Positions 28,682-51,034 of a stretch of DNA of 64,000 bases are shown here, in pieces; positions within the stretch are counted from its first letter, which is position 1; every line of letters begins with the position of its first letter. Source of the stretch: Planctomycetaceae bacterium. GTDB lineage: Bacteria > Planctomycetota > Planctomycetia > Pirellulales > UBA1268. The position numbers and the translations under genes are program-made. The DNA is taken from positions 24,894 through 88,893 of the forward strand of contig CANFQO010000005.1 in NCBI GenBank assembly GCA_947449135.1, read 5' to 3'. Below the pieces are notes generated by a model. The model saw only the letters and a program-made list of their open reading frames with translations, did no database searches and was not told the DNA's origin.

Positions 28682-30540
28682 CTGAGCACCTCGCTCAGCG
28701 GCTGCGGCCGACGCTCAGTCGCTGACACCGCCCGCCGCAGCCCCACGACCATCCAGCCATCGATCACGTTCAGATAGTCCAGCTCAAGAAACGGCTGCAC
28801 GCGTGCGTTGGGGAAACGAGGCATGGGGTGGAGTTCATGACCGAAAAACAGCCCGAGTACGTTCTGCCAGACGGCCCTCTTCCCTATGGGAACCGATTCC
28901 GAAAATGCGAACGGCTCCCGGATCAATCGCGGTCCCCCTGGATCCCTGTCAATGAGGTATCGAATCCGCACGCTGCACGGCCCGCTGTCGGCGGATTTTC
29001 CATCGATTTCGCAGCCGGTCGCCCGGAGGTCCAACTCAATACCACCAGGCAGAAACCGCATCGACATGGGCGACACATCACCAAGGGTGATCGTCGCGGG
29101 AATCCGCCCGGGAGCCAGCGCATCCCAATCGGTGCTCGTGAGCTTGAACTGGACCTCCCAAAGCCCGCGCACGGTAGCCTCGTCCACGCGGCCACCACCA
29201 ATGACGGCGAGGCTGTTCGTCACGGCCGACTCATGAACCCAGGTGATGAGATCAAGGTCGGAACGCCGCTCCGGAGGAATTGGGGGGCGTGCGGAGACTG
29301 CCGCCAACTGATTGTCGCGCGCGTAGAAGGTCTCGCTCCACATGCCCGCTGCGTCATTCCACAGTCGTACACGCGGGATGTAGTCGAGGGCTGCCAGGCG
29401 ATCCCAGGCGGCATATTGCAGCAGACCATTGACGCGGTAGGCCAGCCTGAGCCCCTCTTCACGGACACGTTCGCCGACCGATTTCTCGATCGCATGAGCC
29501 ACGATGCGGTCGTTGACGATCAGCCGGTCTTGTATCGCGTGGCCGGCCACCCTCCTCGCCAGCCCGCATTGCCCGAGCCATCCGTCGAGACAGATCCCTG
29601 ACAGTCGCGTGTGAAAGTCGGCCGTCACCGCTGGGGCATCGGCAACGACGCGTGACGGCAGAATCCTCAGGGGCTGGACGCCGTCGACGCTCGGGGAGGC
29701 CCCGGCCCGCACGTGGATCCTGCGCTGATCGGCCGAGGCAGCGACATGGCCTGCTCCAACCGCGTGGAGGAGCAGCCGGTTCTCGCCGTCGCTCTCGGGT
29801 GCCGTCGCCGACAGCGTGACGCGGATGTCACCACGGCCGGCGATCGTGGCTCCCTGCCGACGCTCCCGGAAGTTCACAGGCTGGTCGAAGTGCTGCCGCG
29901 ATATCGCGGTGACGAATTCACCGCTGAGAAACGACGTGGAATTCGCCGTCGAGAGACGACGCTGGATCGTCTCCACGACGGCTGCCGAAGGCAGCAGATC
30001 CGCCACCTGAGCATAGGCCTGCCGAACTGCAGACTCGCCATCCCGCGACGACCGCAGCCTGTCATCGTGAAGGTGCATCTCGATCGTTATCAGGGCTTTT
30101 TTCGCGGCCTCGACATTACCGCCGGTCAGTCGGACCATGCGAGCCAGCCGGGCAACGCTCACGCGGAGATCGTTCACGGATGCCTGAATCTTGCCAGGAA
30201 GGATGCGAAACAGGGAACGCTCGATGCGGCGCAGTTCGGCCTCATCAGGGCGATCCCGCTGAAGTTCGGCATCCAGCCGATCGAGTGCGAGTTCATCGTC
30301 GAGGATGACACCGATTGCCTGCTTTTCCAGATGAGCTCGCACGGAGATCAGTTGTGCGGCGACCTCATGGCGGGCCGCCGCGATCTCTGCCGGTGAAGAC
30401 AATGTGAGCGGCGACGGTGGCAGAGTGCCGCACGATCCCGTCACAAACTCCTCTTTCGGCGGCGTCCCATGGAGGATCGGGGCCCCGAGTGGCAGGAGCA
30501 ACGCGGCAAATAAAAGAGGGTGTCGAATGAGCGTCATCAC
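28678..30540 (-). CDS. Secreted hypothetical protein (620 aa), first gene of a two-gene operon with the patatin-like lipase
   Basis: GTG at 30540 or ATG at 30537. Signal peptide LLFAALLLPLGAPILHG. A helical N-terminal third is followed by a beta-rich remainder. I recognise no motif. Confidence 0.7.
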   Translation of the reverse strand: MMTLIRHPLLFAALLLPLGAPILHGTPPKEEFVTGSCGTLPPSPLTLSSPAEIAAARHEVAAQLISVRAHLEKQAIGVILDDELALDRLDAELQRDRPDEAELRRIERSLFRILPGKIQASVNDLRVSVARLARMVRLTGGNVEAAKKALITIEMHLHDDRLRSSRDGESAVRQAYAQVADLLPSAAVVETIQRRLSTANSTSFLSGEFVTAISRQHFDQPVNFRERRQGATIAGRGDIRVTLSATAPESDGENRLLLHAVGAGHVAASADQRRIHVRAGASPSVDGVQPLRILPSRVVADAPAVTADFHTRLSGICLDGWLGQCGLARRVAGHAIQDRLIVNDRIVAHAIEKSVGERVREEGLRLAYRVNGLLQYAAWDRLAALDYIPRVRLWNDAAGMWSETFYARDNQLAAVSARPPIPPERRSDLDLITWVHESAVTNSLAVIGGGRVDEATVRGLWEVQFKLTSTDWDALAPGRIPATITLGDVSPMSMRFLPGGIELDLRATGCEIDGKSADSGPCSVRIRYLIDRDPGGPRLIREPFAFSESVPIGKRAVWQNVLGLFFGHELHPMPRFPNARVQPFLELDYLNVIDGWMVVGLRRAVSATERRPQPLSEVLR

Positions 30541-30688
30541 GAGATCACCAGGCAGACTCGCTGGCTTCCTCGTTGCCGCTCGATGCCCTCTACGATATTC
30601 GGAGAAAATTGAAAATCCAGTTCCCTGCTCCTATCGTTTCACGATTCCGTTCCCGAGTGGTAACCAGCGTGCATCACGGGGACTTGCC
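30541..30688. promoter_or_regulatory. Relatively AT-rich divergent intergenic region between the two patatin-containing transcription units
   Basis: Local GC drops, for example in tacgatattcggagaaaattgaaaatccagttccc, which includes TTGAAA. In-frame codons of the long ORF here have low GC3, which argues that the region is non-coding. Confidence 0.3.
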
Positions 30689-33600
30689 GTGGATATCTTT
30701 CGAGTCGTGCTCTGCCTGGGCCTCGGTGTATTTCTCTGGAGGCTGAACGTCCGCGGTCGTGAGCCGATCCGGGACTTTTTCGTCTGGGGCGTCGATTACC
30801 CCTTTCATTTCCTGCTGACAGCGACGCTCGTGCTCGTCATCTGGGGGCAAGTGGGTACCGGCTTCGGACTTCAGGGCTTGTTCCTGAATGAGGACCCGCT
30901 GACACAGGTCCTCCTCGGCGCGACGGTGATGCTGCTGCTTGCGACGATCACGGTCCACTACGTGACGCTCGGCACCTCGCGCCGCGGGTGGTGGACGGCG
31001 CTGCACGGAGTCTCAAGGTTCCTGCGAGGTGTGAACGCGGCAAACAATCGCTCGCGGCCCGTCCAATCAGTGCTCGCCAATGGCTTTCTTGAGCAGTTGA
31101 CACGCGCGGACATCAAGACCATCGACCTCGCGTCGCGACTCTCACTGGCATCCGGTGGGTCAGCCGCAGCGACGGTCCTTCCCGCTGCTGTGAGCGATCA
31201 GTTGGAAAGCGAGGCATTTCGGGTGCTCGTCGCTCCGGCCATCCTTCTCAGCAAGGGATTCGGCCTGATTCTTCTGGTCGGCGTGGTGCCCACGATCGTG
31301 ATCCCGTTGGTGAGCCGCGACCCCGCAGGCTGCCTGGAGCGTCTACCGTGGCTCGTAGGCGTGTGCCTCGGTGACGCGATCGGCATCGTCATCGGCTGCT
31401 GGACGACCTCATGGGCGGCAGAGGCGGCGGAGTGGGGCAACAGGAAGCGGACGATCCTTGCCACTATCCGGGAGTGGGCGAAGACGGTGGAAACAGCCCG
31501 CGGTGTTGGGGACGATTCCAGCAAGGCCGCAGTTGCCGTCCCACCACGGCCAGCGTGGCTCACGCTTTTGACAGCGTTCTTTTTGATTCATGCCGCCTGC
31601 AATCTGCTGCTCCCAGAGCCGGTGACGGCGCGATGGATCGACTGGCCCCAGGGCCGTGTGCCAGCCGGGTTGCTCGGGACTTTCCCGTGGCTCCCGCTGG
31701 TGATCCTGCTCGCCGAGACCGCGGCGGCCAGCCTGCTTGTGGCCGGCCTGCCGGATCTTCCCTGGTTGTTCGGCCCTGATCGCTTTGCCCGGCTGGTCGC
31801 TGAGGGCCGGTCCCTCTCTGCATCCGCCGTCGCGCTCACGCTGCGAGCGCTGAGGGCCCGCTGGGTTCATCGGGCGGCGTGGCTTGCCGCCACGCTGCTC
31901 GCCCTTGCCTCCGTGCTGACGACCATCCTCATGTCGCCCGAAATCACGAGTTCCGTCTGGCTAGGCCTGCGTGGATACGCCTCGCTCGGGGCGATGCTGC
32001 TGTGCTGGATCGTGACATTTTGGCTGGCCACGCATGCGGCCACCGGATACGGCTCTCGAACCCTGCGGGAGCAGTCGGCTGCGATCGGCGGATTATGCGG
32101 GCTGGCAGCCCTTCACATCTTGTCTGCACCGGCGTGGTTTGTCGCGCCACTGGCTGCGACCGCAGCGGTCATCTCCGGATCGCGATCGCTTGCCGCACTG
32201 TGGCAGGGCGACCCGTATGGAACACTGCGTCACACGCTCGCGGTGTGTCTCGCCATCGCGTCCGGTATGACACTGTATCTCGGCTGGGCGACGGGATGGT
32301 TTCCGGAGGCGGCGGCCGCATGGCTGGGGGTGGCGATGCTGTTCCTCGGATCGACGACGCTCGGCGGCGTTGCCACCCGGGAGCCGTCGCTCCTCTATCC
32401 CGCGACGGTGCTGCTTGGCTATTTCGCATTTGCGATTCCGTATTCGGCCCTCGGCGAACGGTGGCAGTCGGCGATGCCTGCGGCAGGATCGATCGCCATC
32501 GCCGTCGCCCTGCTGGCTGCGGTCTACACGATCATCGTATTTACCCGGCCACGCAGCGCACTGCTCACCACCGTGGCACTCGTCGGGACGGCGGTCCTGC
32601 TCAATGGGGCGGCGCTGTTCGTGACGCCAAACGAGTTCAAGGGCACGTTTCCCAACATGGATGCGTATTACCGCCTCCCGGTCTATCTCGATTCGCGGGA
32701 CTACTTCCGTGACACCACGCCATCGACGGCCCGCATGCGCATTCGCGCCGTCACAGAGGACTTTGACCGCATGGAGCGACAGGGCGCCAGCGAGAGGCTG
32801 GCGACGGTCTATTTCACGATGGGTCCGCTCAGCCTCCGGCCCGACGGTAGCCACGCGGTGTCGCTCACCGTCGACGACCCTCGCGGCCGCCTGCGTGCGG
32901 TGACGGGCGACACGGTTCGACTGGCGGCCGAGGAATGGTTCACGATCCGGATTGATGGCGAGGATTGCATCGCACTCGCCGAAGAGTCCTTCTATCGCCG
33001 GATCTTTCCGTGGTTTCGCTATGAAACGCTGCATATGATCCGTGACGGCATCATCCGCGGGCCGACCCGCCCACTGGTGCGGGAGGGCGATCCTGTGCCG
33101 TCGCGGCGGCCAGGCATGCCGCGACTGACCTCCTATCGCTTCCTCATAGGCGACGGCAGCCGCGCTGGTCCGGAAGACAGCGACCTGCTTGGTCTGCGGC
33201 TCGTTGGCTTGGCAGAAGACTACCGCCGTGCGGATGCGGAGTACGCGCTCATTTCCATGAACTGGCGCGGGCTGGTGACGGCGGTCAGGCACGAACCACA
33301 GTGTGACGTGTACACGGTGGAATTCGAGATCCCCGAACGTGGCGGCCGACTCGACGACCAGGAACTGAGCACGATGGCATCGTGGATGGAACGCTGTCAT
33401 CTCGACACGCTGCGGCCTGCAGCGCCGGCGCTGGTGACGGACGGTGAGACACGACAGCGTCTTCAACGGCTCCAGATGGCGAATGCGTCGGCGGGAGGCT
33501 GCCTCGTTCTCGAGGACGCACGCAGCGAGCCACCGGTCCCGGTCGGCGTGTTTCTGGCGAGCGAACTGGCGACAGAGGACAAGCACCCAGCGTTTGCACC

Positions 33601-35689
33601 GTATGCGCCCCGCCGCGACGCGATTGATGCGACGATCGGGGCCGTGCCTGGCCCGGTCAGCGCCGAGAGGACATCATTCTCCGGCGACGCCAGTCGCTTC
33701 ACGCTGCGGCCGGCGCACGACCGCGGCCTGTTCGCCAGCGCCGACGGCGCGGTGGCGCACGCCACGAGCGCACGCGTCGCGGCACAGCACACGGATTCGG
33801 TCACCGTCGCCCTCTACAACTCCGGCCGGCTCCGCCCCGGCGATCGGCTGATTCTCACCTGGAATGGCCAAGACGCATCGGCAAGTGGTCCGAGGCTGCA
33901 GCACGGTGCCGTATTCGAACTGCTTGATGTCGGGAAGAACATGGCGGATGACCCGATCGGCGAATCCGTTGAAGCGTACCCCCCTGGCGCGGTCTGGGCG
34001 ACGCTTCGACCGGTGGACCGACATGCCGTCGCTCAGACTGCCACTCGCGCACTCGGGGTGGATGCGGATCCGTTTCTGGTCGGCCAGTGGCAGACCGTGC
34101 AACTGCTCAACAACACGGAAGTGCTCATGGCCTGGCGGAGTCTGGTAGGCGGCCTCTGGCAGGGACGGAAACCGAAGCTTGTCATCGTTACCGTGAGCGG
34201 CGGTGGCATCCGTGCAAGCATCTGGACGTCGGTCGTACTGCGAAAGCTCGAGGCGACGCTTGGCTCCGATTTCCCCTACCACATCCGCCTGATAACCGGG
34301 GCATCGGGCGGCATGGTCGGGGGCTCGTACTACGCCACAACGCTCGTTCCACCTGCCGAGGACGTGTTGCGCGGCCACCGCGCGAATTTCTCGCAGTTGC
34401 ACGGAATGACGATCGAAGACTTCGTGAACCGAATGGCAACCGACCAGCTGGATGCGGTCGCCGGCCGCATGCTGTTCGCGGACCTCCCCGGCACGCTCAG
34501 CCCGTTCGCGAAAAAGGGAGATCGGGGACGGACGCTCGAACAGACCTGGATCCGCTGGACGGGCGGCCCCGACAGTCCGCTGGGTCGCCCTCTGCAGTCA
34601 TACGCCGCGGACGAACGGCTGGGCTGGCGGCCCACGCTCGCCTACACGCCGATGATGGTCGAGGATGGTCGGCGACTGCTGATCAGCAATCTGGATCTGG
34701 CCTTCGCCACGCGAAACGTCGGCGGCCTGCTCCTCGAACCCTCTTCGCGAAAGATCGAGCGGCCGACGATTCAGGGAGGCGACTTCGACCTTAGTATTCA
34801 TGAAGAGGACGACGTCTTCTCGCTCTCCGCCGTCGAATTCTTCCGGCTTTTCCCCAAGGCCCACGATTTCCAGGTCACCACAGCGGCTCGCATGAGCGCC
34901 TCATTTCCATGGGTGTCGCCCGCGATCAATCTTCCCACGCTCCCGCCCCGCCGCGTCGTCGACGCAGCCTACTACGACAATTATGGCGTCAACCTGTCGT
35001 CGCTCTGGCTCTCCAAGATGAGTGCCTGGCTCGAGGAGAACACGTCGGGAGTTCTTGTCGTGCAGATCCGCGACAACGTCAGTCAGGGCGCACGTACCGA
35101 GATCGACTTCGATCGCATCCAACCCGAGAATTCGTTGCTCGACCGGCTCGTGTGGCACGGCGGCAGCAAGCTGATCCGGCCGGGACTGCAGGCGATCAGC
35201 ACGCCGCTCATTGGGGTGACCAACGCGCGCACCTGGACGATGGCTTTTCGGAATGACGAACAGGTCGACCTCCAGGATCTGCTGTTCGACGAGAAACAGG
35301 GCAGTGATTTCTTCCGTACAGTCGTCTTTGAATGCCCGGTGGAGGTCTCGCTCAACTGGAAGCTATCCGATAGGGAGAAAGCGGTGCTGATCGGCGGCTT
35401 CGGACGGCCTGATGCGACACCCCGACAGGAATTGTCGCGGGTGAAGGACTTCATGACGGGCAGGGACTCGTACGAGTTTCACAAGTGGCGGATCGACCAC
35501 CGCAACTCGCCGTCTTTTTTACGGCAGCTCAAGGAGCGTTATGACGAGCAACTGCGGGCGCTGGGCATCGCCGATACCGCGCGTCTCAGCCCACTGGATA
35601 GCCAGAAGCTGTATGAAAACGTGATTCGGAATCTCAAGCGGCTTGAACTCCTCGCCGACTGGTGGGAGTCGGGCCGCGTCGGCGATTGA
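30689..35689 (+). CDS. Giant polytopic membrane protein with a C-terminal patatin-like phospholipase domain
   Basis: The ORF is open from 30404. I prefer the GTG at 30689 (MDIFRVVLCLGLGVFLW). The ATG at 30527 would overlap the divergent gene. About 15 or more hydrophobic helices fill the first ~800 aa, followed by a soluble middle region. Patatin motifs are VTVSGGGIRASIW (oxyanion), ITGASGGMVG (GxSxG) and VVDAAYYDNYG (Asp). Confidence 0.85.
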   Translation: MDIFRVVLCLGLGVFLWRLNVRGREPIRDFFVWGVDYPFHFLLTATLVLVIWGQVGTGFGLQGLFLNEDPLTQVLLGATVMLLLATITVHYVTLGTSRRGWWTALHGVSRFLRGVNAANNRSRPVQSVLANGFLEQLTRADIKTIDLASRLSLASGGSAAATVLPAAVSDQLESEAFRVLVAPAILLSKGFGLILLVGVVPTIVIPLVSRDPAGCLERLPWLVGVCLGDAIGIVIGCWTTSWAAEAAEWGNRKRTILATIREWAKTVETARGVGDDSSKAAVAVPPRPAWLTLLTAFFLIHAACNLLLPEPVTARWIDWPQGRVPAGLLGTFPWLPLVILLAETAAASLLVAGLPDLPWLFGPDRFARLVAEGRSLSASAVALTLRALRARWVHRAAWLAATLLALASVLTTILMSPEITSSVWLGLRGYASLGAMLLCWIVTFWLATHAATGYGSRTLREQSAAIGGLCGLAALHILSAPAWFVAPLAATAAVISGSRSLAALWQGDPYGTLRHTLAVCLAIASGMTLYLGWATGWFPEAAAAWLGVAMLFLGSTTLGGVATREPSLLYPATVLLGYFAFAIPYSALGERWQSAMPAAGSIAIAVALLAAVYTIIVFTRPRSALLTTVALVGTAVLLNGAALFVTPNEFKGTFPNMDAYYRLPVYLDSRDYFRDTTPSTARMRIRAVTEDFDRMERQGASERLATVYFTMGPLSLRPDGSHAVSLTVDDPRGRLRAVTGDTVRLAAEEWFTIRIDGEDCIALAEESFYRRIFPWFRYETLHMIRDGIIRGPTRPLVREGDPVPSRRPGMPRLTSYRFLIGDGSRAGPEDSDLLGLRLVGLAEDYRRADAEYALISMNWRGLVTAVRHEPQCDVYTVEFEIPERGGRLDDQELSTMASWMERCHLDTLRPAAPALVTDGETRQRLQRLQMANASAGGCLVLEDARSEPPVPVGVFLASELATEDKHPAFAPYAPRRDAIDATIGAVPGPVSAERTSFSGDASRFTLRPAHDRGLFASADGAVAHATSARVAAQHTDSVTVALYNSGRLRPGDRLILTWNGQDASASGPRLQHGAVFELLDVGKNMADDPIGESVEAYPPGAVWATLRPVDRHAVAQTATRALGVDADPFLVGQWQTVQLLNNTEVLMAWRSLVGGLWQGRKPKLVIVTVSGGGIRASIWTSVVLRKLEATLGSDFPYHIRLITGASGGMVGGSYYATTLVPPAEDVLRGHRANFSQLHGMTIEDFVNRMATDQLDAVAGRMLFADLPGTLSPFAKKGDRGRTLEQTWIRWTGGPDSPLGRPLQSYAADERLGWRPTLAYTPMMVEDGRRLLISNLDLAFATRNVGGLLLEPSSRKIERPTIQGGDFDLSIHEEDDVFSLSAVEFFRLFPKAHDFQVTTAARMSASFPWVSPAINLPTLPPRRVVDAAYYDNYGVNLSSLWLSKMSAWLEENTSGVLVVQIRDNVSQGARTEIDFDRIQPENSLLDRLVWHGGSKLIRPGLQAISTPLIGVTNARTWTMAFRNDEQVDLQDLLFDEKQGSDFFRTVVFECPVEVSLNWKLSDREKAVLIGGFGRPDATPRQELSRVKDFMTGRDSYEFHKWRIDHRNSPSFLRQLKERYDEQLRALGIADTARLSPLDSQKLYENVIRNLKRLELLADWWESGRVGD

Positions 35690-35888
35690 ACGCTGCCACC
35701 AACCCATTGCCCCGAATGGGTCCTCTGCCAGGGGGTATGAGGGATCAGGGACGGAGGGGATCGTCGGCGGAGACGCCGGCAGCCTCCCCGTCCGTTCGCC
35801 GGCACACCATGGAGACATCGGTGGCGTCAGGGTTATACTTTCGCCGCCCGGTGCGGATACCGTCACATCCAGCAGAAAGTCACAGCGG

Positions 35889-37610
35889 ATGCCTGAAGAC
35901 ACGGATCGACTTCGAGCGCTATTCGACGCCGTCGCCACCGACGGATTCACGTCGGCCGAGGCGATCCACAACTGCATCTCCGAGTGCGGCCTGAGCATTG
36001 ATGATCACCGTCTTCGGACGATGCGGACAAGACTGCAAGCCCAGCAGCAAAGGCCCATCGATCAGGAGGCTTTCACCGACATCGTCCGCGATGAACTGCT
36101 GACCGTGAGCCGCATTGTTCGCCGTCAACTCGTCGTCCCGGACTGGCCCGAGTTCTGCCAGGCCATCCGCCGCATCTACGACGAGGTCGCCCCGGATCGG
36201 AGCGGAGCGAACGCGAACTACATTCCGATTCTGCGCGACGCCGACCCGGAGAAGTGGGGCGTGGCTCTTTGCAGCGTGGATGGCCAGCGGTTCTGCCTCG
36301 GCGACGTGGATGTCTATCACTCGATTCAGTCTGTCTCAAAGCCGCTGACCTACGCATACGCGCTTTCCAAGGAGGGCGAGGAGTTCACCCATGCTCATGT
36401 GGGCATGGAGCCCTCCGGTCGACCGTTCAACGATCTGTCCCTCCTGCCGGATCTGCGACCTTTCAACCCCTGCGTCAACGCCGGCGCGATCATGATCGCC
36501 GGCATCGTGGCCTCAGGGAGTCCGGATCGATCAGCGAGGGAAGTCACGCAGGACATCATGGACCTGTGGACTGCACTCTGTGGTGGTGTGGGCGAGGTTC
36601 GCTTTAGCGAGGAGACGATGCTCTCCGAACGCGCGACCGCCCACAACAACTTCGCCATCGCCTATCTCCTACAGGGACGCAAAGGGCTTCCACGCAACGT
36701 CGACCTGCACAAGACGCTCGACATCTACCTGTCTTGCTGCAGCATCGAGATGACGGCGTCGATGCTCTCCGTGGCCGCGGCCACTCTGGCCAATGGCGGC
36801 GTGTGTCCCGTCACCGGCGTTCAGGTGCTGCCCACGGAGCTTGTCAAACGGACGCTGGCGGTCATGCAGTTCGCAGGCATGTATGACAACGCGGGCGCGT
36901 TCACGTTCAGTGTGGGCCTTCCCGCAAAGTCTGGCGTCGCCGGTGCCGTGATGGCGGTGGTGCCCAACCTGATGGGATTCGCGACGTTCTCGCCTCGCCT
37001 GGACGCATACGGCAACTCCGTCCGCGGTGTCGCCTTCTGTCGTCAGCTGGTCGACCGCTTCACCTTTCATGTGTACGACAGCCTTTCTGGAGGTCGCACT
37101 GGCTGCAAGCAGGATCCGCGGGAATCGCAGCGGAACCGCAAGCACCGCGACCTCTCCGATCTGCGATGGGCCCTTTCCTATGGCGATCGGTACGCCAGCA
37201 AGGTGCGCGATCTGGCGCTCACCAGCATGATCGACATCTGCCTTGGCGATGGGGATATCGAGGACAGCGAATTAGCCGTCATCGCGAGCACGCTCGAAGA
37301 CATCGTCGGCTCACCGATCGAGGTGTCGGAGCTAGAGTCGCTCGCGCGGAATCGACAGGCGCAGGCCTTGGCTTCCGCCATACCGCCGTTCGAAGGCCTG
37401 GTCGCAAGGCTCGCTCAGGAGCAGGTGCATCTCGATGACAACGCTCGCGAGCTCATTCTCGAATCGGCGTTCCGAGTGGCCTGTGCCGACGGCGAGGTGG
37501 AGCCGCAGGAGCATGAGCGTCTGCTCAAGATCGCCGAAGCTCTGGCCATCCATGCTGGCGTGCTTCAACTGGAGATAGACCGCTTTCAACGCAAATTAGC
37601 AAAGCGTTGA
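35889..37610 (+). CDS. glsA: Glutaminase A with an N-terminal GLS-type EF-hand-like extension and a C-terminal TerB-like domain
   Basis: ATG at 35889. The core reads ANYIPILRDADPEKWGVALCSVDGQRF, QSVSKPLTYAYAL (Ser-x-x-Lys), NPCVNAGAI and GLPAKSGVAGAVMAVVPN. The C-terminus has two ADG/GDG-E helical pairs: ICLGDGDIEDSELAVIAS and RVACADGEVEPQEHERLLKIAEAL. Confidence 0.9.
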   Translation: MPEDTDRLRALFDAVATDGFTSAEAIHNCISECGLSIDDHRLRTMRTRLQAQQQRPIDQEAFTDIVRDELLTVSRIVRRQLVVPDWPEFCQAIRRIYDEVAPDRSGANANYIPILRDADPEKWGVALCSVDGQRFCLGDVDVYHSIQSVSKPLTYAYALSKEGEEFTHAHVGMEPSGRPFNDLSLLPDLRPFNPCVNAGAIMIAGIVASGSPDRSAREVTQDIMDLWTALCGGVGEVRFSEETMLSERATAHNNFAIAYLLQGRKGLPRNVDLHKTLDIYLSCCSIEMTASMLSVAAATLANGGVCPVTGVQVLPTELVKRTLAVMQFAGMYDNAGAFTFSVGLPAKSGVAGAVMAVVPNLMGFATFSPRLDAYGNSVRGVAFCRQLVDRFTFHVYDSLSGGRTGCKQDPRESQRNRKHRDLSDLRWALSYGDRYASKVRDLALTSMIDICLGDGDIEDSELAVIASTLEDIVGSPIEVSELESLARNRQAQALASAIPPFEGLVARLAQEQVHLDDNARELILESAFRVACADGEVEPQEHERLLKIAEALAIHAGVLQLEIDRFQRKLAKR

Positions 37611-41455: not shown

Positions 41456-41721
41456 CAGCGCGGATCTCCGGCGGTGAGGGGTCGGTGGCCCCGAGATGGG
41501 GCGGACTGAGAACCGAGCGGCGTGGTTCTCCGAGGATTCCTCGGAGTGTACGCCAGGAATCCCCGCTCGCACAGCGACGCGACAGGCCACCGGCAGACGG
41601 TGCGATTTTGGATTGAAATCGATACCATACGGGGAGAGGCCGAGGGTGGAGTCGTCTGCCCACAGCTCCACCTGCGACACCGGCGGCAGTGGCCGCCCTC
41701 ACCGAAAGAGGACCGAACATC
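41456..41721. promoter_or_regulatory. Divergent intergenic region carrying several inverted repeats, upstream of the WXG-like operon
   Basis: gagaacc/ggttctc hairpin (~41510-41529). Near-palindrome ccgaggattcctcgg (41530-41544). ggattcc...ggaatcc (41534-41562). AT-richer cgattttggattgaaatcg (~41602-41620). An AAGAGGA Shine-Dalgarno-like element sits at 41705-11, before the ATG at 41722. Confidence 0.3.
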
Positions 41722-41994
41722 ATGGGACAGGTCATCGTCGATCCCGAGGAGCTGCGTCGGTTTGCGGCCCGTCTGCGATTTTTCAGCACCGAGGTGATGA
41801 CGCAGATGCAAGGGGTACAACGGCAGCTCGCAGCACTCAGCTCAAGCTGGCGCGACCAGGAACAGCAAAAGTTCACGGAGGAATTCGAGCAGCAGCTGAG
41901 CACCTTCGCCCGGTTCGTCGAAGCGACTGAAGATTACGTCCCCTACCTCATCCGCAAGGCCGAACGGGTCGAACAATACCAGCAGCAGCGCTGA
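41722..41994 (+). CDS. WXG100-like small helical protein (W-R-D variant)
   Basis: 90 aa from the ATG at 41722, which has an SD-like AAGAGGA upstream. The track gives GTG at 41689. MGQVIVDPEELRRFA...SSSWRDQEQQKFTEEFEQQL has Trp at residue 43 and a predicted helix-turn-helix length of ~90 aa. As far as I recall, it is colinear with YukE/EsxA-type proteins. Confidence 0.65.
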   Translation: MGQVIVDPEELRRFAARLRFFSTEVMTQMQGVQRQLAALSSSWRDQEQQKFTEEFEQQLSTFARFVEATEDYVPYLIRKAERVEQYQQQR

Positions 41995-42010
41995 CAGCAG
42001 CACCTGATTC

Positions 42011-42652
42011 ATGTCAACCCAGGCAGAAGTCAAATCGATCGATACGCTCGCCTTCGTGAAGGCGGCCATGGTGGCGTTTGGCCATGAAACGGGCCAATCA
42101 CTTGCCGAGGTCGAGATGCAGGCCCAACGGATCGTCGATTGGATCTGCCTCGAACAAGCCGCCTACTGGAAGACGGAGGTCCGCAAGGCGGCTGATGGCG
42201 TCAACCAGGCCATCAAAGACCTTCAGCACTGCCGCACCTACAAGAAAGTGGGCAACAACGAGCCCTCGTGCATCGAGGAAAAGAAGGCGCTCGAAAAAGC
42301 CAAGAAGAAACTCGCACGTGCCGAGGAGAAGGCGGAGGCCGTGCGGCGGTGGACGCCCGTGGTGCGTCAGCAATTCCAGGAAACGGGGGTCCGCCTGACC
42401 CGATTCCGGGAGATCATCGACGTTGACTGCCCCAAGGCCGTGGCACGGTTGGAACGGATGCTCGTCTCGCTCGACCACTATGCCCACACCTCGGCGCCGC
42501 GGGGCACTGCCGGCGGCGCAGGGGACGTGACGAAGGCATCGGTCGCGCGGCCTGCCGACGAAGCGGCCAACGCCGCGCCGCAGCCAGACCGACCACTCAT
42601 CGACACACCGACTCCGCCGAGTCCGAACGGTGGCGAAGGGAGCAGCCGATGA
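42011..42652 (+). CDS. Hypothetical helical protein (213 aa) within the WXG/FtsK-like operon
   Basis: ATG lies 16 nt after the upstream stop. Predicted to be largely alpha-helical with a KKALEKAKKKLARAEEKAEA coiled segment and a Pro/Ala-rich tail. Its stop overlaps the next start (ATGA at 42649-52). Confidence 0.65.
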   Translation: MSTQAEVKSIDTLAFVKAAMVAFGHETGQSLAEVEMQAQRIVDWICLEQAAYWKTEVRKAADGVNQAIKDLQHCRTYKKVGNNEPSCIEEKKALEKAKKKLARAEEKAEAVRRWTPVVRQQFQETGVRLTRFREIIDVDCPKAVARLERMLVSLDHYAHTSAPRGTAGGAGDVTKASVARPADEAANAAPQPDRPLIDTPTPPSPNGGEGSSR

Positions 42653-42882
42653 ATGCCGATCTTTCCAGCGGCGCGTCGAAGATGGCGCTCGCCATGAAGC
42701 AGCTCAGCCTGAAGTGGGAAGCCGCCCGGGAGACCTGGGACGATGCCACGGCCAGGGCTTTTCACAAGGAGCACATCGAACCGCTTCCCCCGCGGGTCAA
42801 GGAGACTCTCGAGGCCATCGGCCGCTTGGCAGAGGTGCTCGCCCGCGCCAGCCGCGATGTGAGCGACACCCATGATTATTGA
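42649..42882 (+). CDS. Small WXG100-like protein (W-D-D variant, 77 aa)
   Basis: ATG is preceded by GAAGGGA. ETWDDATARAFHKEHIEPL mimics the W-x-G plus aromatic segment of WXG100 proteins. Its stop overlaps the TTG start of the ATPase (TTGA at 42879-82). Confidence 0.55.
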   Translation: MNADLSSGASKMALAMKQLSLKWEAARETWDDATARAFHKEHIEPLPPRVKETLEAIGRLAEVLARASRDVSDTHDY

Positions 42883-45800
42883 TCCGACCCGCCACGGCCA
42901 CGCCGGCGGCTGACTGCAGCTTCTTCACTCTGCAAAAGCCACGCTCTCGCTCACCCTCCCCGCATCGTGCGAATCGTCTCGTCACACTCTCCCATACCGT
43001 AGATGGACCTGCTGCCTTGAATCACACAGCCTACGACCGCGACCTGCTGCGAGAACAGATCCTCCGACTCCGGAAGGCGGCCGCCGCGCGAAGCCACCTG
43101 GAGCAGGAGATCACCCTCGAGCACGAGAAGGAAACGATGGCCGCGCGGAAGCACGCGGACACGGAAACCTCCGCCTTGGAGGAGAGCTATTCCGGTGAGT
43201 CCGACGCCCTCCGCCGCGAACACGCCTCAGTGATTGAAAAAGCTGATGCCGAGGCCCTCGCCGAGCGATCGAAGCTCGACGCACAGCGCAAGGGTTTTGC
43301 CGCGACGATTGACCGGAACTGGGAGCAACAGCAGGAGCAACTCAAGGGCGACGCGCAGTTTGACGACAACTCCGCCAAGGAAGTCTTCAAGGACAAAAGG
43401 AAAGAGCCGGGGACCACCCTGCAGCGCACCGAGAAGAGTCTGGCTGCCATCGCCGCCCAACTCGGTGAGGCCGACGCCCGCAGCCTGCAGTTCCTGAAGG
43501 ACCAAGGGCTGGCAGCGGCTCTTCCCGCCCTCCCCAACACCCCTCCCGCCGAACAGGGTTCTCCGGCGTCGAACGAACCAGCATCCGCTAAGGCTGCGGC
43601 AGAGCCGCTCCCGACGGGTGCGGAACTGCTCACGCTCCTCGAGCAGCTTCGCGGCACCGTGGCCAACCAGACCACGGCACTCCTAGGGCTCAAGTCAGTG
43701 GCCACCGCTTTCTCGGGCGGCACCAAGGCGGCGGTGATCGTCCTCCCGATCCTGCTGGGGATCGTGTCCGCAGTGATGACCTACCTCCTGTTCGGCGGAA
43801 ACGCTACCACCAAGGCGATTGCCGCGTTGACGGCTTTGGCCACTGTGGCGGTCGTTGGTGTCGGGCTCGGACTATGGCTGATTGGCCGGCTTCGCCGAGC
43901 CGCCTGCAAGCAGGCTGCAGCCCTTCGGGAGGAGCTCGTTCACACCATCGATCGCACGCGTCAGTGCCTCACCGCGAGCACCGGATTCGTCAAAAAACGT
44001 CACGACGCTCAATTGGCCAAGCTCGATGCTACGTTTGCCGAGGAGTCGAAGCAGCGGAAGATGAAAACTGAGGCCGATCTCTCTGCCGCACAGCAGAAAC
44101 GTGACAAGCTTCACGCCGAACTCAACGCAAAATTCACCGGGGCCCTCGACAAAGTCCAAAAGAAGCTCGACGCCACGCGCGAGGCCGCCGAAAAGAAATA
44201 CCCAGCGCGACTGGAATCGCTCGCCACGAACCGCACCAACCGACTGCAACAGCTCGCTCAGGAACGCGACGACCGGCTGGCCGCGGCCGACCACCGACGA
44301 AACGAACGCTGGCAGCTTATGACCGACGCGTGGCGGACGGCCCGCACCGAGACGGCTGCCGTCTACGACAAGGCCACCAGCATCGACACAGCCGCATTCC
44401 AGCCTTGGAGCGCGCTGGCAACCGATGAGACCCCGTTGCCCGCGGTAGCGCCGCCAGGACTGCGATTTGGGCAGCTCGCCCTGTCGCTCGAGAGGGTGCC
44501 AGGGGGCGTGTCGTCGCGGCCCGAATTCAATGCCTTCGGGCCGGTGTCCTGGACACAGCCCGCGACCGTGCCGTTCCCGGTAGAGGCATCGCTGCTCATC
44601 AAGACCAGTGGCGACCAGAAAGAGGTGGCGTCCGAGATGATGCAAGCGATGATGCTGCGGATCGCCAGCGGCGTGCCGGCGGGCCAGACCCGCTTCACGA
44701 TCATCGACCCACTCGGCCTCGGCAAACAGTTCGCGGGGTTCATGCACCTCGCCGATTACGACGAACTGCTCGTCACCAGCCGGATCTGGACGGAACCACC
44801 GCAGATCGAGCAATGCCTGGCCGACATCACCGAACAGATCGAACTGGTGATTCAGAAATATCTGCGAAACGAATACGAATCGATCGGCGACTACAACGCC
44901 GACGCCGAGGTGCCAGAGCCCTATCGTTTCGTCGTGGTGGCGAACTTCCCGGCCAACTTCAACGAAACCAGTGCCCGCCGGCTGGCGAGTATCGCCGCCT
45001 CCGGCGCGCGGTGCGGCGTCTACACGATCGTCTCGGTCGACACCTCGCAGCACATGCCTTCCAACTTCAATATCGCCGACATCGAACAGCACGCGACCAC
45101 GCTCGTGCTCAAGGATGGCGTCTACACCTGGAATGACCCCGAGTTTGGCAAATGGCCGCTCGCCGTGGAGCAACCGCCATCGGACGAGTTGTTCACCAAG
45201 ATCATCCAGCGAGTTGGCAAGGCGGCCAAGGCAGCCAAGCGGGTGGAGGTGCCTTTCGACCGCGTGGCGCCCAAGGAAGAGGACTGGTGGACGGGAAGCA
45301 CCGCCACCGAAGTGCTTGCCCCGCTGGGTCCCGCGGGTGCCAAGAAGCTTCAGTATATGAAGCTCGGCAAAGGCACGAGCCAGCACGCGCTGATCGCCGG
45401 AAAGACGGGCTCCGGCAAGTCAACGCTCATGCACGCGTTGATCACGAGCCTGGCGCTCAATTACAGCCCGAACGAGATTCAGTTCTACCTGATCGACTTC
45501 AAGAAGGGCGTCGAGTTCAAGCTCTACGACCACTACCGTCTGCCGCACGCACGGGTGATCGCGATCGAGAGCGAGCGCGAATTTGGCCTATCGGTGCTCG
45601 AGCAACTCGACCGCGAACTGAAGCGCCGCGGCGACCTGTTCCGAGAATTCGCGGTGCAGGACGTCGCCGGTTTCCGCCAGTCGGGCAATGGTGAACCGAT
45701 GCCTCGCATCCTCCTCATCATCGACGAGTTCCAGGAAATCTTCGTCGAGGACGACAAGATCGCCCAGGATGCATCCTTGATTCTCGACCGTCTGGTGCGG

Positions 45801-47222
45801 CAGGGTCGTGCCTTCGGTATGCACGTGCTGCTCGGCTCCCAGACGCTCGGCGGCTCCTATAGTCTGCCCCGCGCCACGATGGGTCAGATGGCGGTCCGCA
45901 TCGCGCTGCAATGCAACGAGGCCGATTCCAGCCTGATTCTCAGCGAGGAAAACACGGCCGCCCGCCTGCTGACGCGTCCCGGCGAGGCGATCTACAACGA
46001 TGCCAACGGCATGGTCGCCGGCAACAATCCCTTCCAGGTCGTGTTCTTGAACGACGAGCGTCGCGAGCGGTATCTCGGCGCTCTGCGGCGGCTGGCCGAC
46101 CGGCGGACCGACATTCCGGCCCTGCCCCGCATGGTGTTCGATGGCAACGAGGCGGCCGACCCTGCGGGGAATGCCCTGCTGGCGGAACTGCTCAGCGCCG
46201 GCACCGTGGCTGGGAGTTCGCAGACGGCGCCGCTGGCGTGGCTTGGCGACGCCATCGCCATCAAGGATCCGACAGCTGCCATCTTTCGTCGTCAGGGTGG
46301 CGCCAACCTGCTCATCGTGGGCCAGCGCGAGGATCTGGGTGTGAGTCTGCTGGCCATGTCGATGGTCAGTCTTGCCGCAGCACACGATCCGCATCCGGGC
46401 GGTGCCCTGGGCCGCGCAGCGCGGTTCGTGGTATTCGAGCCTGCGATCGCCGAGGAGAAGCCCGACATCCTGCTTTCGAAACTCGCCCCCTCACTGCCGC
46501 ACGAGACGGAGTTGGTCGGTCGGCTCGGGGTCGGCGATGCGGTCCAGCGGCTGGCCGACGAGGTGCGCCGGCGGATCGACGAGCAGGTGCTCGACGGCGA
46601 GGCCGTCTACGTGATCATCCGCGACCTGGCTCGCTTCCGTGAACTGCGGCGAAACGAAGGCGACTTCGGATACTCATTCGGTGGCGACCAGAAGGCCACG
46701 CCGGCCCAGAATCTGGTGACGCTCCTCAAGGATGGGCCTCCCGTCGGCGTGCATGTGCTCATCTGGTGCGACTCGCTCACGAACCTGCAGCGGACGTTCG
46801 AACGCGGCACGCTCAAGGAATTCGAACTCCGCGTGCTCTTCCAGATGAGCGGCTCCGACTCCAGCCAGCTCGTCGATAGCCCAGCCGCGGTGAAGCTTGG
46901 TCCGCAGCGGGCACTCTTCATTCACGAGGAGACGGGCACGCTCGAGAAATTCCGACCGTATGCTTTCCCGGCGGGTGAATGGCTCACCGGAATGTCGGCA
47001 GCGATGAAGGCGCGGCCGCAGGGCACACCCGTGCAGCGGCCGGTCGCCGCGCCGGCGGCATCACCCTCGAAACCAACCGCCGCCCCCGGCGACGATTTCG
47101 GCTTCACGGGCAAACTCGGCGGCGGCTTCGGTGCCGACGAATTCAACTTCGCCAAGTTTCTCGATGACACGCCCGCAGAGGATGGGGCCGAGGGCTCTCC
47201 GCCCGGCGACGGCCAGCCGTAG
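42879..47222 (+). CDS. Membrane-anchored FtsK/SpoIIIE-family ATPase with three P-loop modules (EssC/EccC-like)
   Basis: 1447 aa. An N-terminal coiled coil is followed by two TM helices (nt ~43729-43887) and a second coiled coil. Module 1 is degenerate (LLIKTSGDQKEV). Module 2 is intact, with Walker A IAGKTGSGKST (45399-45422) and Walker B LLIIDEFQE (~45711). Module 3 is degenerate (LLIVGQREDLGVS). The start codon is uncertain (TTG). Confidence 0.9.
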   Translation: MIRPATATPAADCSFFTLQKPRSRSPSPHRANRLVTLSHTVDGPAALNHTAYDRDLLREQILRLRKAAAARSHLEQEITLEHEKETMAARKHADTETSALEESYSGESDALRREHASVIEKADAEALAERSKLDAQRKGFAATIDRNWEQQQEQLKGDAQFDDNSAKEVFKDKRKEPGTTLQRTEKSLAAIAAQLGEADARSLQFLKDQGLAAALPALPNTPPAEQGSPASNEPASAKAAAEPLPTGAELLTLLEQLRGTVANQTTALLGLKSVATAFSGGTKAAVIVLPILLGIVSAVMTYLLFGGNATTKAIAALTALATVAVVGVGLGLWLIGRLRRAACKQAAALREELVHTIDRTRQCLTASTGFVKKRHDAQLAKLDATFAEESKQRKMKTEADLSAAQQKRDKLHAELNAKFTGALDKVQKKLDATREAAEKKYPARLESLATNRTNRLQQLAQERDDRLAAADHRRNERWQLMTDAWRTARTETAAVYDKATSIDTAAFQPWSALATDETPLPAVAPPGLRFGQLALSLERVPGGVSSRPEFNAFGPVSWTQPATVPFPVEASLLIKTSGDQKEVASEMMQAMMLRIASGVPAGQTRFTIIDPLGLGKQFAGFMHLADYDELLVTSRIWTEPPQIEQCLADITEQIELVIQKYLRNEYESIGDYNADAEVPEPYRFVVVANFPANFNETSARRLASIAASGARCGVYTIVSVDTSQHMPSNFNIADIEQHATTLVLKDGVYTWNDPEFGKWPLAVEQPPSDELFTKIIQRVGKAAKAAKRVEVPFDRVAPKEEDWWTGSTATEVLAPLGPAGAKKLQYMKLGKGTSQHALIAGKTGSGKSTLMHALITSLALNYSPNEIQFYLIDFKKGVEFKLYDHYRLPHARVIAIESEREFGLSVLEQLDRELKRRGDLFREFAVQDVAGFRQSGNGEPMPRILLIIDEFQEIFVEDDKIAQDASLILDRLVRQGRAFGMHVLLGSQTLGGSYSLPRATMGQMAVRIALQCNEADSSLILSEENTAARLLTRPGEAIYNDANGMVAGNNPFQVVFLNDERRERYLGALRRLADRRTDIPALPRMVFDGNEAADPAGNALLAELLSAGTVAGSSQTAPLAWLGDAIAIKDPTAAIFRRQGGANLLIVGQREDLGVSLLAMSMVSLAAAHDPHPGGALGRAARFVVFEPAIAEEKPDILLSKLAPSLPHETELVGRLGVGDAVQRLADEVRRRIDEQVLDGEAVYVIIRDLARFRELRRNEGDFGYSFGGDQKATPAQNLVTLLKDGPPVGVHVLIWCDSLTNLQRTFERGTLKEFELRVLFQMSGSDSSQLVDSPAAVKLGPQRALFIHEETGTLEKFRPYAFPAGEWLTGMSAAMKARPQGTPVQRPVAAPAASPSKPTAAPGDDFGFTGKLGGGFGADEFNFAKFLDDTPAEDGAEGSPPGDGQP

Positions 47223-49715: not shown

Positions 49716-49795
49716 ACGCCTTCGTATACCCCAGCCAAGCCCCGTTGCACAGGCCCGGGCTGGTCGGATGCCGGTCGCCGGGAAACAATACGGTC

Positions 49796-51034
49796 ATGAA
49801 ACTCGGACTGCTTGGCATCGATGACCGGATCGCAGCGGTGGTCGCCGCCGCCCCGGCGGCCGGTGACACGGTCGTGATTGGCTGCGATCTGCCTGACTCG
49901 AGGCCGCTGGACGGATCGGTGGCCGCGAATATGCCCCGAGATCCCTCTTGGGAGCCGTTGCTCGATCCGCAGGTCTGTGATGCGGTGCTCGTCGGCGTCG
50001 ACGGCTGGAATGACGCCCGAGCGGATGGTGTGAGGGCGCTCGTACAGGCGGGACGCGCCCTTTTGCTTTCCCACCCGCTGGTGCTTTCGATGCTCTGGGC
50101 CTACGAGCTCGACATGATCCACGGCGATTCCGGCGCGAGACTGATCCCCTTCCTACCCGACCGTCTGCATCCATTCATTCGCAGACTCCAGGAGCAGATC
50201 GAGGCGGGGCTCGCGGGCGCGGGCCCACTGGGAGCTGTCGAGACGATCACGATGGAACGGCGGATGGTCGACAGATCTCGCGATGCCGTTCTCCGCGCGG
50301 TCGCCGTCGACGCCGATCTTGTCAGGGTTCTGGCAGGAGATCCCTCCCGGCTCTCGACACTTGGCGCTGCTGATGCTGACGCCGCCTGGAATACGCTCGC
50401 GGTCGGCTTCAGCGGGCCGACACAGGTGCCGGTACGATGGCAGGTGGTCCGAGGCGACCAACCTGGCCTGCGGATCACGGTCGTGCAGGCTCAGGGGTCG
50501 TGTGCTGTCGACATTCCTGACGATCCCCCTGATCGCACCGGCCGTGACAACCGGCTGCCCTGGACCTGGTCGGGCGAGTACACCGAAACGGAAGCCTTCG
50601 ATCGCGGAGCAGTGATGCTCGAGGAGTTGCATCGCGTCCGTCAGGCCACGCCGATCCCTCCTGCCGCCTGGTCTGACGCGGCCCGCGCGATTGAGTTGGC
50701 CGAGACAGTGCCTCGGAGTCTCGCCAGAGGGCGGGCAATCGACCTCCACCAGGAAGAGTTCTCGGAGCTTGGCACATTCCGCGGCACCATGGCCTCGCTC
50801 GGCTGCGGACTTGTGCTGGCAGCCCTGCTGGTGCTCGTCCTGGCAACCTTGGTGGGCGGTATCGCCCGTGAGGCAGGCTGGGCCTGGGGTGAACAAATCG
50901 CGGGCATCTGGCCCTGGGTCGTCCTCTCCGTGCTGTCACTCTTTCTGGCCCTCCAGGTTCTGCCGCTCCTCATCAGCGCCGGCGCCGCCCCCCCCGCCGA
51001 AGGGCCGCCGGATCAGCGGCCACGGCGGGAGTGA
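49796..51034 (+). CDS. Hypothetical membrane-anchored protein with a degenerate Gfo/Idh/MocA-like N-terminus
   Basis: ATG at 49796 (MKLGLLGIDDRIAAVV). Two C-terminal TM helices (LGCGLVLAALLVLVLATLVGGI and IWPWVVLSVLSLFLALQVLPLLI). The nucleotide-binding GxGxxG is not intact. Confidence 0.6.
   Translation: MKLGLLGIDDRIAAVVAAAPAAGDTVVIGCDLPDSRPLDGSVAANMPRDPSWEPLLDPQVCDAVLVGVDGWNDARADGVRALVQAGRALLLSHPLVLSMLWAYELDMIHGDSGARLIPFLPDRLHPFIRRLQEQIEAGLAGAGPLGAVETITMERRMVDRSRDAVLRAVAVDADLVRVLAGDPSRLSTLGAADADAAWNTLAVGFSGPTQVPVRWQVVRGDQPGLRITVVQAQGSCAVDIPDDPPDRTGRDNRLPWTWSGEYTETEAFDRGAVMLEELHRVRQATPIPPAAWSDAARAIELAETVPRSLARGRAIDLHQEEFSELGTFRGTMASLGCGLVLAALLVLVLATLVGGIAREAGWAWGEQIAGIWPWVVLSVLSLFLALQVLPLLISAGAAPPAEGPPDQRPRRE

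Follow-up and report, generated by a model that had tools for sequence, protein, structure and literature searches.

Does a diderm bacterium carry a type VII secretion system (T7SS), a machinery whose definition and study have been all but confined to Actinomycetota and Bacillota? The question is raised by a cassette of four genes, here called g1 to g4, in a Planctomycetaceae genome (assembly GCA_947449135.1, contig CANFQO010000005.1), which we analyzed within a window of 64 kb, meaning the whole stretch of 64,000 nucleotides presented here. The cassette encodes a WXG100-family protein, two further small helical proteins, and a large ATPase related to EccC and EssC. We consider it homologous to the T7SS core, with a probability of roughly 85%. 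Whether it also shares a T7SS-like export or targeting mechanism is, when judged by analogy, an evenly balanced matter, and secretion by the cassette is plausible. All open reading frames (ORFs), motifs, and coordinates are given in the numbering of the whole window, and all cassette genes lie on the + strand. The genes and their leader signal are as follows (aa, amino acids).

41707..41712, + strand: Shine-Dalgarno-like AGAGGA, 9 nt 5' of the g1 ATG, read directly from the sequence
41722..41994, + strand: g1, 90 aa, member of the WXG100 family whose turn reads W43-R-D (subtype of HP0062); possibly a substrate or cofactor
42011..42652, + strand: g2, 213 aa, cassette-specific helical protein
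42649..42882, + strand: g3, 77 aa; its W30-x-D32 turn is invariant, and it is probably a WXG100-like hairpin that has diverged and been shortened at the N-terminus
42879..47222, + strand: g4, membrane ATPase related to EccC and EssC; 1447 aa if translated from TTG 42879, 1401 aa if translated from TTG 43017

The original prediction, made from the letters of the window, had described four same-strand ORFs linked by a 16-nt gap between g1 and g2, an ATGA overlap of g2 and g3 (42649-52), and a TTGA overlap of g3 and g4. The ORFs, the gap, and the first overlap were all verified in the sequence. The second overlap exists if the longest g4 ORF is used, but the start of g4 could instead be TTG 43017, which together with TTG 42879 makes up the full set of possible start codons. 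The first 46 residues of g4 are unconserved, and the majority of relatives are called from the equivalent of TTG 43017; translational coupling of g3 to g4 through the overlap is therefore doubtful in the window. For g1, the longest ORF begins at GTG 41689, and the 90-aa version begins at ATG 41722. We assigned the start to the ATG because the AGAGGA precedes it and because relatives are 89-90 aa long. A scan of the locus for promoters and terminators returned background-level signals and was uninformative. The three small genes are real and under purifying selection, with ratios of nonsynonymous to synonymous substitution rates (dN/dS) against close relatives of 0.03-0.13 for g1, 0.05-0.17 for g3, and 0.13-0.32 for g2. 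Their products contain neither a signal peptide nor a transmembrane (TM) or other hydrophobic segment (the maximum KD19 hydropathy of g1 is 0.44), as expected for T7SS substrates.

Relationships and domain architecture of the ATPase

Sequence scores place g4 closest to EccC and EssC, not to FtsK. A single Pfam FtsK_SpoIIIE stretch (PF01580, 110 bits) was found at residues 814-989. The EccCa, EssC, and EccCb equivalog models score 103-112 bits (score/cut-off: TIGR03924, 111.7/509; TIGR03925, 102.9/347; TIGR03928, 107.9/778), and the FtsK equivalog NF007615 scores 28.4 bits (cut-off 1566). In a phmmer search of the PDB, the best match was EccC of T. curvata (4nh0, E 1.4e-33), followed by EccC5 and YukB, with TcpA and FtsK at about 1e-10 to 5e-10. 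A search of 5.8 billion proteins gave, as the best matches outside the family, EccC-like and FHA-bearing multi-domain proteins. In g4 itself, no FHA or Yop-YscD_cpl domain was found by Pfam at E <= 1. The regions of the protein are listed below (pLDDT, predicted local distance difference test).

43017..43688, + strand: g4 residues ~47-270, charged N-terminal region, conserved from 'AYDRDLL' onward (alignment A1), without a Pfam domain
43707..43895, + strand: residues 277-339, two-helix TM hairpin with KD19 hydropathy peaks of 2.54 and 2.26
43911..44498, + strand: residues ~345-540, second charged region, putative stalk (alignment A1; positioned as the EccC stalk in PMC6986878)
44511..45293, + strand: block A, residues 545-805, degenerate ATPase-like domain with GVPAGQT, PYRFVVVANFP, and SGARCGVYTIVSVD
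45294..46073, + strand: block B, residues 806-1065, sole canonical FtsK-type ATPase domain, with Walker A and Walker B
45399-45422, + strand: Walker A, G841KTGSGKS, the single strict Walker A in g4
~45708-45728, + strand: Walker B, LLIIDE, in block B
46221..46988, + strand: block C, residues 1115-1370, degenerate ATPase-like domain with LLIVGQREDLGVS, YVIIRDLARF, and GVHVLIWCDS
47124..47168, + strand: residues 1416-1430, motif GFGADEFNFAKFLDD (GFGADEFNFxKFLDDPP) in an otherwise disordered, low-pLDDT C-terminal tail

The two TM helices (~277-339) and the Walker A lysine K847 (in G841KTGSGKS) were recovered as originally described. The triple P-loop that had been proposed along with them was not, since g4 has one canonical Walker A/B pair and one FtsK_SpoIIIE stretch, flanked by two degenerate ATPase-like domains. 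g4 is thus composed of three ATPase-like domains, one fewer than EccC/EssC, and only the middle one keeps Walker A and Walker B. Within this middle domain, alignment A1 shows no variation in the Walker A motif, D949, or E950, and block B as a whole is near-invariant across classes. Profile comparison with hhalign aligned block C to block B in register (probability 94%, E 1.4e-7, 203 columns), with ghost motifs at the positions of Walker A (LLIVGQREDLGVS) and Walker B (YVIIRDL); block A also aligned to block B in register, more weakly (E 0.008). Both flanking blocks escape detection by means other than profile-profile comparison or fold: searches of the PDB with a block A profile and with the single block C sequence gave no match. 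Outside the ATPase-like blocks, the charged region at ~47-270 looks like a coiled coil, a label taken from its composition, and the C-terminal motif GFGADEFNFAKFLDD is kept in close relatives and is missing at 43% identity (alignment A1).

Structure prediction extended this comparison beyond the catalytic domain. In an AlphaFold2 model of residues 541-1447 (mean pLDDT 58.6), block A (pLDDT ~65-85) adopts an alternating beta-alpha fold and block C reaches a pLDDT of 75-91. The top Foldseek match of this model was the three-domain EccC structure 4nh0 (E 1.2e-18) over 882-915 columns, at global TM-scores of ~0.2 and with the coverage of blocks A, B, and C read from the alignment length; EssC and fragments with EccC domains D2-D3 came next. 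FtsK and TcpA matched one domain only (~240 columns, E ~1e-6 to 1e-7). Sequence scores and Foldseek ranking agree with the earlier claim that the ATPase is EssC/EccC-like. Canonical EccC consists of two TM helices, a stalk, a Rossmann-fold domain of unknown function (DUF), and ATPases 1-3 (PMC6986878). By analogy with this layout, we infer that block A would be the counterpart of the EccC DUF, block B that of ATPase 1, and block C that of the substrate-binding terminal domain, ATPase 3. A role of block C in substrate recognition is proposed on the model of EccC ATPase 3 (PMC6986878).

The same comparisons bear on the possibility that g4 translocates DNA, as ATPases of the FtsK/SpoIIIE, TraB, or TcpA type do, and serves chromosome segregation or conjugation, with the small genes being incidental. 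Its catalytic domain does share the RecA-like FtsK-type motor fold with these proteins: the Pfam FtsK_SpoIIIE domain is present, TcpA and FtsK motors are among the fold matches, and some database records name g4 relatives 'cell division protein FtsK'. The resemblance to FtsK/SpoIIIE and TcpA is, however, far weaker (28-43 bits, ~240 aligned columns), with the FtsK equivalog score far from its cut-off, and the multi-domain colinearity of g4 is with EccC. No gamma or winged-helix domain was detected among the Pfam matches of g4 at E <= 1. Moreover, this tandem-domain protein is tightly linked to a WXG100 gene, and the locus lies outside a mobile-element context. A DNA-translocase role is disfavored on these grounds, and we regard it as highly improbable.

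Three small proteins encoded beside the ATPase

By Pfam's own threshold, g1 is firmly placed among the WXG100 proteins: it matches PF06013 with 41.9 bits (gathering score 27.3, E 1.2e-10) over model positions 2-83 of 86. Its score against TIGR03930 is 36 bits, under the cut-off of 44.85. The best PDB matches are H. pylori HP0062 (3fx7/2gts, E 3e-7, full length) and then EsxB and EsxA, all of them solved helix-turn-helix hairpins to which g1 aligns over its full length, and the hairpin of g1 is assigned by this sequence alignment. The central tryptophan, which had been placed at residue 43, is seen there within SSSWRDQEQQKF, and the turn reads SWRD, as in HP0062. g1 thus departs from the W-x-G turn, with W43-R-D keeping the Trp and replacing Gly with Asp, both family-wide and in HP0062. 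This W-R-D turn is a recognized WXG100 variant and not a ground for exclusion. The gene is present in 51 related loci, and the 47 distinct relatives are 89-90 aa long and share near-invariant VDPxELRxFA, (T/S)W(R/Q)DQE, and C-terminal RKAxxxxxYL motifs. As a candidate export motif in g1, V66-E70-V73-I77 was dropped; it is a single positional match that is not kept across the family.

The second small protein, g3, shows the closest linkage to the ATPase of the three: its gene adjoins that of the ATPase in 59 of 64 loci. It is probably a divergent, shortened WXG100-like hairpin, as suggested by matches that are concordant and all sub-threshold. The g3 of the window has no Pfam match and aligns to TIGR03930 in register at E 0.028. 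With a profile of 29 diverse g3 relatives, the top PDB match was S. aureus EsxA (E 0.007), with W30-x-D32 lying on the W-x-G of EsxA, followed by 4lws, which we take to be the T. curvata EsxAB structure. PF06013 is the Pfam family matched by most of these relatives (4/29, all sub-threshold, best E 0.0012). Comparison of position-defined g3 and g1 alignments by hhalign gave E 1.5e-4 to 5.7e-4 over the turn (probability 29-52%), and a clean g3 hidden Markov model (HMM) had g1 as its sole other match in the window (E 0.002). The original prediction of two WXG100-like proteins, to be checked by WXG100 family matches, therefore stands for g1, which passes PF06013. For g3, in which the cited TWDDATARAF was read in the sequence, the matches are suggestive and sub-threshold, and none is significant. 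At its C-terminus, g3 carries R-(D/E)-C in most relatives and R-D-V in the window and its closest relatives (alignment A2). An HMM scan found no further paralogue of g1, g2, or g3 in the window.

Between these two lies g2, a cassette-specific helical hairpin protein whose family is large and without annotation. g2 matches nothing in Pfam or NCBIfam, and hhalign detected no relationship to g1 or g3. A word search returned 606 family matches, and an exhaustive profile search returned 2,004 clusters at 50% identity with E <= 1e-3, of which 1,265 have E <= 1e-10. The AlphaFold2 model (whole-protein mean pLDDT 68) consists of a helix at residues 4-27, a hairpin of helices 31-77 and 88-136 (pLDDT 85-97), a helix at 141-158, and a disordered Pro-rich tail from ~160 onward. 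Foldseek comparison of this model with the PDB gave nothing at E <= 0.001; F-BAR, SipB/IpaB, and HlyD appeared as generic long-helix matches (best E 0.11), and no fold was assigned. The tip loop of the hairpin is bracketed by invariant C74 and C87 (P85-x-C87), and a third cysteine, C140 (DVDCPK), is nearly invariant; the cysteines could form a disulfide or a metal site. A second g2-like ORF of 235 aa, found at positions 1241-1948 of locus L009, ~6 kb upstream of the cassette, may be a g2 paralogue.

Long g2 variants (337-380 aa) contain a C-terminal Pfam Imm33-like domain (PF24719, 28-46 bits, gathering score 27), which lies above the gathering score in five of the six variants scanned (P0297, P0316, P0369, P0387, and P0425). 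g2 ORFs comparable to the Imm33 variants in length (354-377 aa) were found mainly in Phycisphaerae/Tepidisphaerales-type loci, namely L041, L058, L059, L071, and L072. Imm33 is, as we understand it, an immunity-protein family of polymorphic toxin systems. Its occurrence argues weakly for a module of toxin delivery or conflict between bacteria, a type to which many T7SSb loci belong. In such a module, effectors would be encoded at other loci, and g2 would be their targeting or immunity-type partner. In published abstracts, T7SSb is described as exporting toxins with small helical WXG100-like partners, which would fit such a role. The g2 of the window, however, has a disordered Pro-rich tail where the long variants carry the domain and gives no Imm33-like match. 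In addition, neither the cassette nor its immediate surroundings, in the window and related loci, were found to contain a gene for a toxin, an LXG or Rhs protein, or a variable effector, and the locus is conserved and syntenic rather than polymorphic. Assignment to a defense system was likewise rejected, with PADLOC giving generic FtsK-domain matches only (SspH, mad8). We therefore consider a conflict function unlikely.

Distribution of the cassette and loss of the transmembrane hairpin

A scan of species-representative genomes identified at least 405 relatives. Taxonomy was read for the best 80, all of which belong to Planctomycetota (Pirellulales, Planctomycetaceae, Thermoguttaceae, Schlesneria, Phycisphaerales, and Tepidisphaerales), and the cassette spans the two classes Planctomycetia and Phycisphaerae. 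Using locally built HMMs, we scored gene order in the 51 loci whose upstream sequence exceeds 2.6 kb. The order g1-g2-g3-ATPase, on the same strand, was kept in 46 of them, so that the expected synteny in relatives holds across the phylum. At L004/L005, the cassette has unrelated flanks and an ATPase with only 43% identity; some Schlesneria-like loci carry g3 alone upstream of the ATPase. Together, these data establish that g1, g2, and g3 are co-inherited with an EccC/EssC-related ATPase and that a T7SS-related module is widespread in Planctomycetota. The planctomycete-type nature of the genome, which had been read from the sequence, is confirmed by a PSCyt1/PSCyt2/PSD1 gene further along the window and by nearest relatives among metagenome-assembled genomes (MAGs) of Pirellulales.

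Several cassettes come from MAGs with other labels, namely Candidatus Kuenenia (L006, L013, L024, L025, L028, L037, and L052) and Chitinophagaceae (L021). Their ATPases are ~60-82% identical (best segment) to that of the window, which groups with Pirellulales MAGs. We suspect that these records reflect binning or taxonomy-label errors.

The TM hairpin of the ATPase is present in 64 of 78 scorable g4 homologues. In at least nine related species-level genomes it is deleted, and clean in-frame deletions of exactly the hairpin were found at L002/L003, L014, L016, L017, L020, L023, L029, and L032. The TM-less ATPases have no residual hydrophobic segment, and their loci contain no compensating gene in cis. 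The cassette is otherwise intact at these loci, and the C-terminal 850 ATPase residues are 74-82% identical to those of the window. In a neighbor-joining tree of the ATPases, which is crude and carries no support values, the TM-less proteins occupy about three separate positions inside the window's clade, beside TM-bearing relatives, which suggests that the hairpin was lost recurrently. Because the hairpin is deleted and the cassette kept, the ATPase of those lineages functions without need of its own membrane anchor. These losses from intact cassettes count against the earlier picture of a stripped-down machine, if that machine is to have no membrane part other than the ATPase.

They also bring into play the main rival explanation, namely that the cassette is a cytoplasmic descendant of the T7SS. 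Its single active domain would then remodel, assemble, or disassemble helical bundles of g1, g2, and g3 at the inner membrane face or within the cytosol. Such a role would be conserved and of a housekeeping type, without export, and the TM hairpin would only localize the ATPase. Several features are consistent with this idea in addition to the repeated, clean loss of the hairpin from retained cassettes with highly conserved ATPases. No membrane partner or channel gene is co-conserved in the flanks scanned, conservation is unusually strong (seen in the dN/dS of g1 and the near-invariance of block B across classes), and long charged regions stand on either side of the hairpin. Furthermore, the compact cassette is surrounded by core genes (HemQ-like, HtrA, CinA, dnaG, rpoD, and greA). 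On the other hand, the two TM helices are kept in the large majority of scorable homologues, TM-less ATPases could still be recruited to a membrane partner, and no specific cytoplasmic function can be named. It is also established that all characterized WXG100/EccC-type pairs are secretion systems. We regard a purely cytoplasmic role as possible, at odds well below even.

Proposed mechanism, comparison with known systems, and neighboring genes

In the T7SS-like export or targeting mechanism that we favor, at about even odds, the first step would be formation of a four-helix bundle by g1, either as a homodimer, as in HP0062, or together with g3. By analogy with EccC, this bundle would dock on the C-terminal degenerate domain, the presumed counterpart of ATPase 3, and docking would promote oligomerization of the ATPase. 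ATP hydrolysis in the single active domain could then power delivery of the helical proteins to the cytoplasmic membrane, or through it into the periplasm, with g2 acting as an adaptor, chaperone, or co-substrate. The TM hairpin would be an anchor and not the whole channel, and at least one membrane partner encoded elsewhere would therefore be required.

The cassette shares its basic plan with the T7SS core, that is, EccC/EssC with EsxA/EsxB, found as T7SSa in Actinomycetota and as T7SSb and T7SSc-j in Bacillota/Actinomycetota. In both, a WXG100 gene adjoins a gene for a two-TM FtsK/SpoIIIE ATPase with a stalk and tandem ATPase-like domains, and signal peptides are missing from the small helical proteins. 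By sequence and by fold, g4 matches EccC and EssC best, and its degenerate block A precedes catalytic block B as the DUF precedes ATPase 1 in EccC (PMC6986878). The differences are equally distinct. g4 has three ATPase-like domains, one of them with Walker A/B, whereas EccC/EssC have four, and a charged N-terminal region of ~220 residues replaces the FHA domains of EssC. The turn of g1 is W-R-D and not W-x-G, the partners g2 (a new family) and g3 are cassette-specific, the TM hairpin is dispensable in some cassette lineages, and the host is a diderm bacterium of the Planctomycetes-Verrucomicrobia-Chlamydiae group. In contrast to T7SSa and T7SSb, the cassette region has no EccB/EccD/EccE/MycP and no EsaA/EssA/EssB/EsaB (YukD): none was found among the larger ORFs within ~10 kb in the window, where the original prediction had likewise recognized none in the flanks.

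The nearest counterpart in a Gram-negative is the HP0062/HP0066 pair of H. pylori. HP0062, the best solved relative of g1 and the one with the same SWRD turn, forms a hairpin that dimerizes into a four-helix bundle; its turn carries W-R-D instead of W-x-G, and it clusters with HP0066, which is FtsK/SpoIIIE-like. The H. pylori WxG/FtsK pair has been termed a minimal T7SS set in a pan-genome study of that species. The same study groups a DnaK homologue with the WXG100 cluster, whereas the planctomycete cassette contains none.

Several points weigh against a T7SS interpretation. g4 falls under every curated EccC/EssC equivalog cut-off by a wide margin, and it has three rather than four ATPase-like domains with one canonical P-loop. 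Neither the T7SS accessory proteins named above nor any other membrane protein is encoded in the cassette or co-conserved in its flanks, in the window and related loci alike. The clean loss of the TM hairpin at about three tree positions argues against the ATPase alone forming a channel. The C-terminal export motifs of the T7SS (YxxxD/E; HxxxD/ExxhxxxH) are, by inspection, unconserved in the g1 alignment. Very high conservation and a housekeeping neighborhood are unusual for a secretion or competition locus. Finally, secretion by Gram-negative WXG100/FtsK pairs, the present family included, is not experimentally confirmed (2023 review). Homology to the T7SS core remains our preferred reading; more tentatively, and with the balance against it, the cassette may be its own kind of machine. 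It would then be a T7SS-core descendant with one active and two degenerate motor domains, a W-R-D WXG100 protein, two partners outside known systems, and a repeatedly dispensable anchor. Such a descendant could be a new diderm secretion route with another channel, or a WXG100/FtsK pair repurposed for a conserved non-secretory function.

WXG100/FtsK pairs have been noted in some Gram-negatives in silico only, in small number and without functional confirmation (2023 review, citing Sutcliffe 2011 and Unnikrishnan 2017), in agreement with the statement in the original prediction that homologues in bacteria of the Planctomycetes-Verrucomicrobia-Chlamydiae group had been noted only in silico. A 2024 survey of T7SS subtypes was limited to Bacillota and Actinomycetota, and our literature search found no description of a planctomycete T7SS or of the present cassette. 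Gram-negative pairs and the minimal set of H. pylori were already known. What the present analysis adds is the definition of a unit of four genes that extends widely through the phylum, two protein families (g2 and g3), an ATPase that has one active ATPase-like domain and two degenerate ones, and the recurrent loss of the TM hairpin suggested by the tree. With its presence in at least 405 species-level genomes of two classes in a diderm phylum, the cassette offers a compact and genetically simple system for asking what a minimal T7SS-type machine is and how WXG100 proteins interact with a motor that has just one active domain. Its natural TM-less variants raise the question of whether a membrane anchor, and hence secretion, is essential. 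The cassette also lends a probable functional context to thousands of planctomycete 'hypothetical proteins'.

The genes next to the cassette are a divergent chlorite-dismutase/HemQ-family gene and convergent HtrA-like and CinA genes. Annotation of these flanks bears out the hemQ-like gene described upstream and the convergent htrA-like gene described downstream. Further along, a 429-aa ORF (49745-51034, + strand) has no Pfam family and encodes two C-terminal hydrophobic helices. A counterpart lies 3' of CinA in the close relative L002 and is missing from L004/L005, and we therefore do not count this ORF as a cassette member. On the other side, a 1761-aa ORF (30404-35689, + strand) has no Pfam family at E <= 1e-5, and the neighboring 655-aa protein (35643-37610, + strand) is an unusual fusion, with a glutaminase domain and, at the C-terminus, a TerB (tellurite-resistance) domain.

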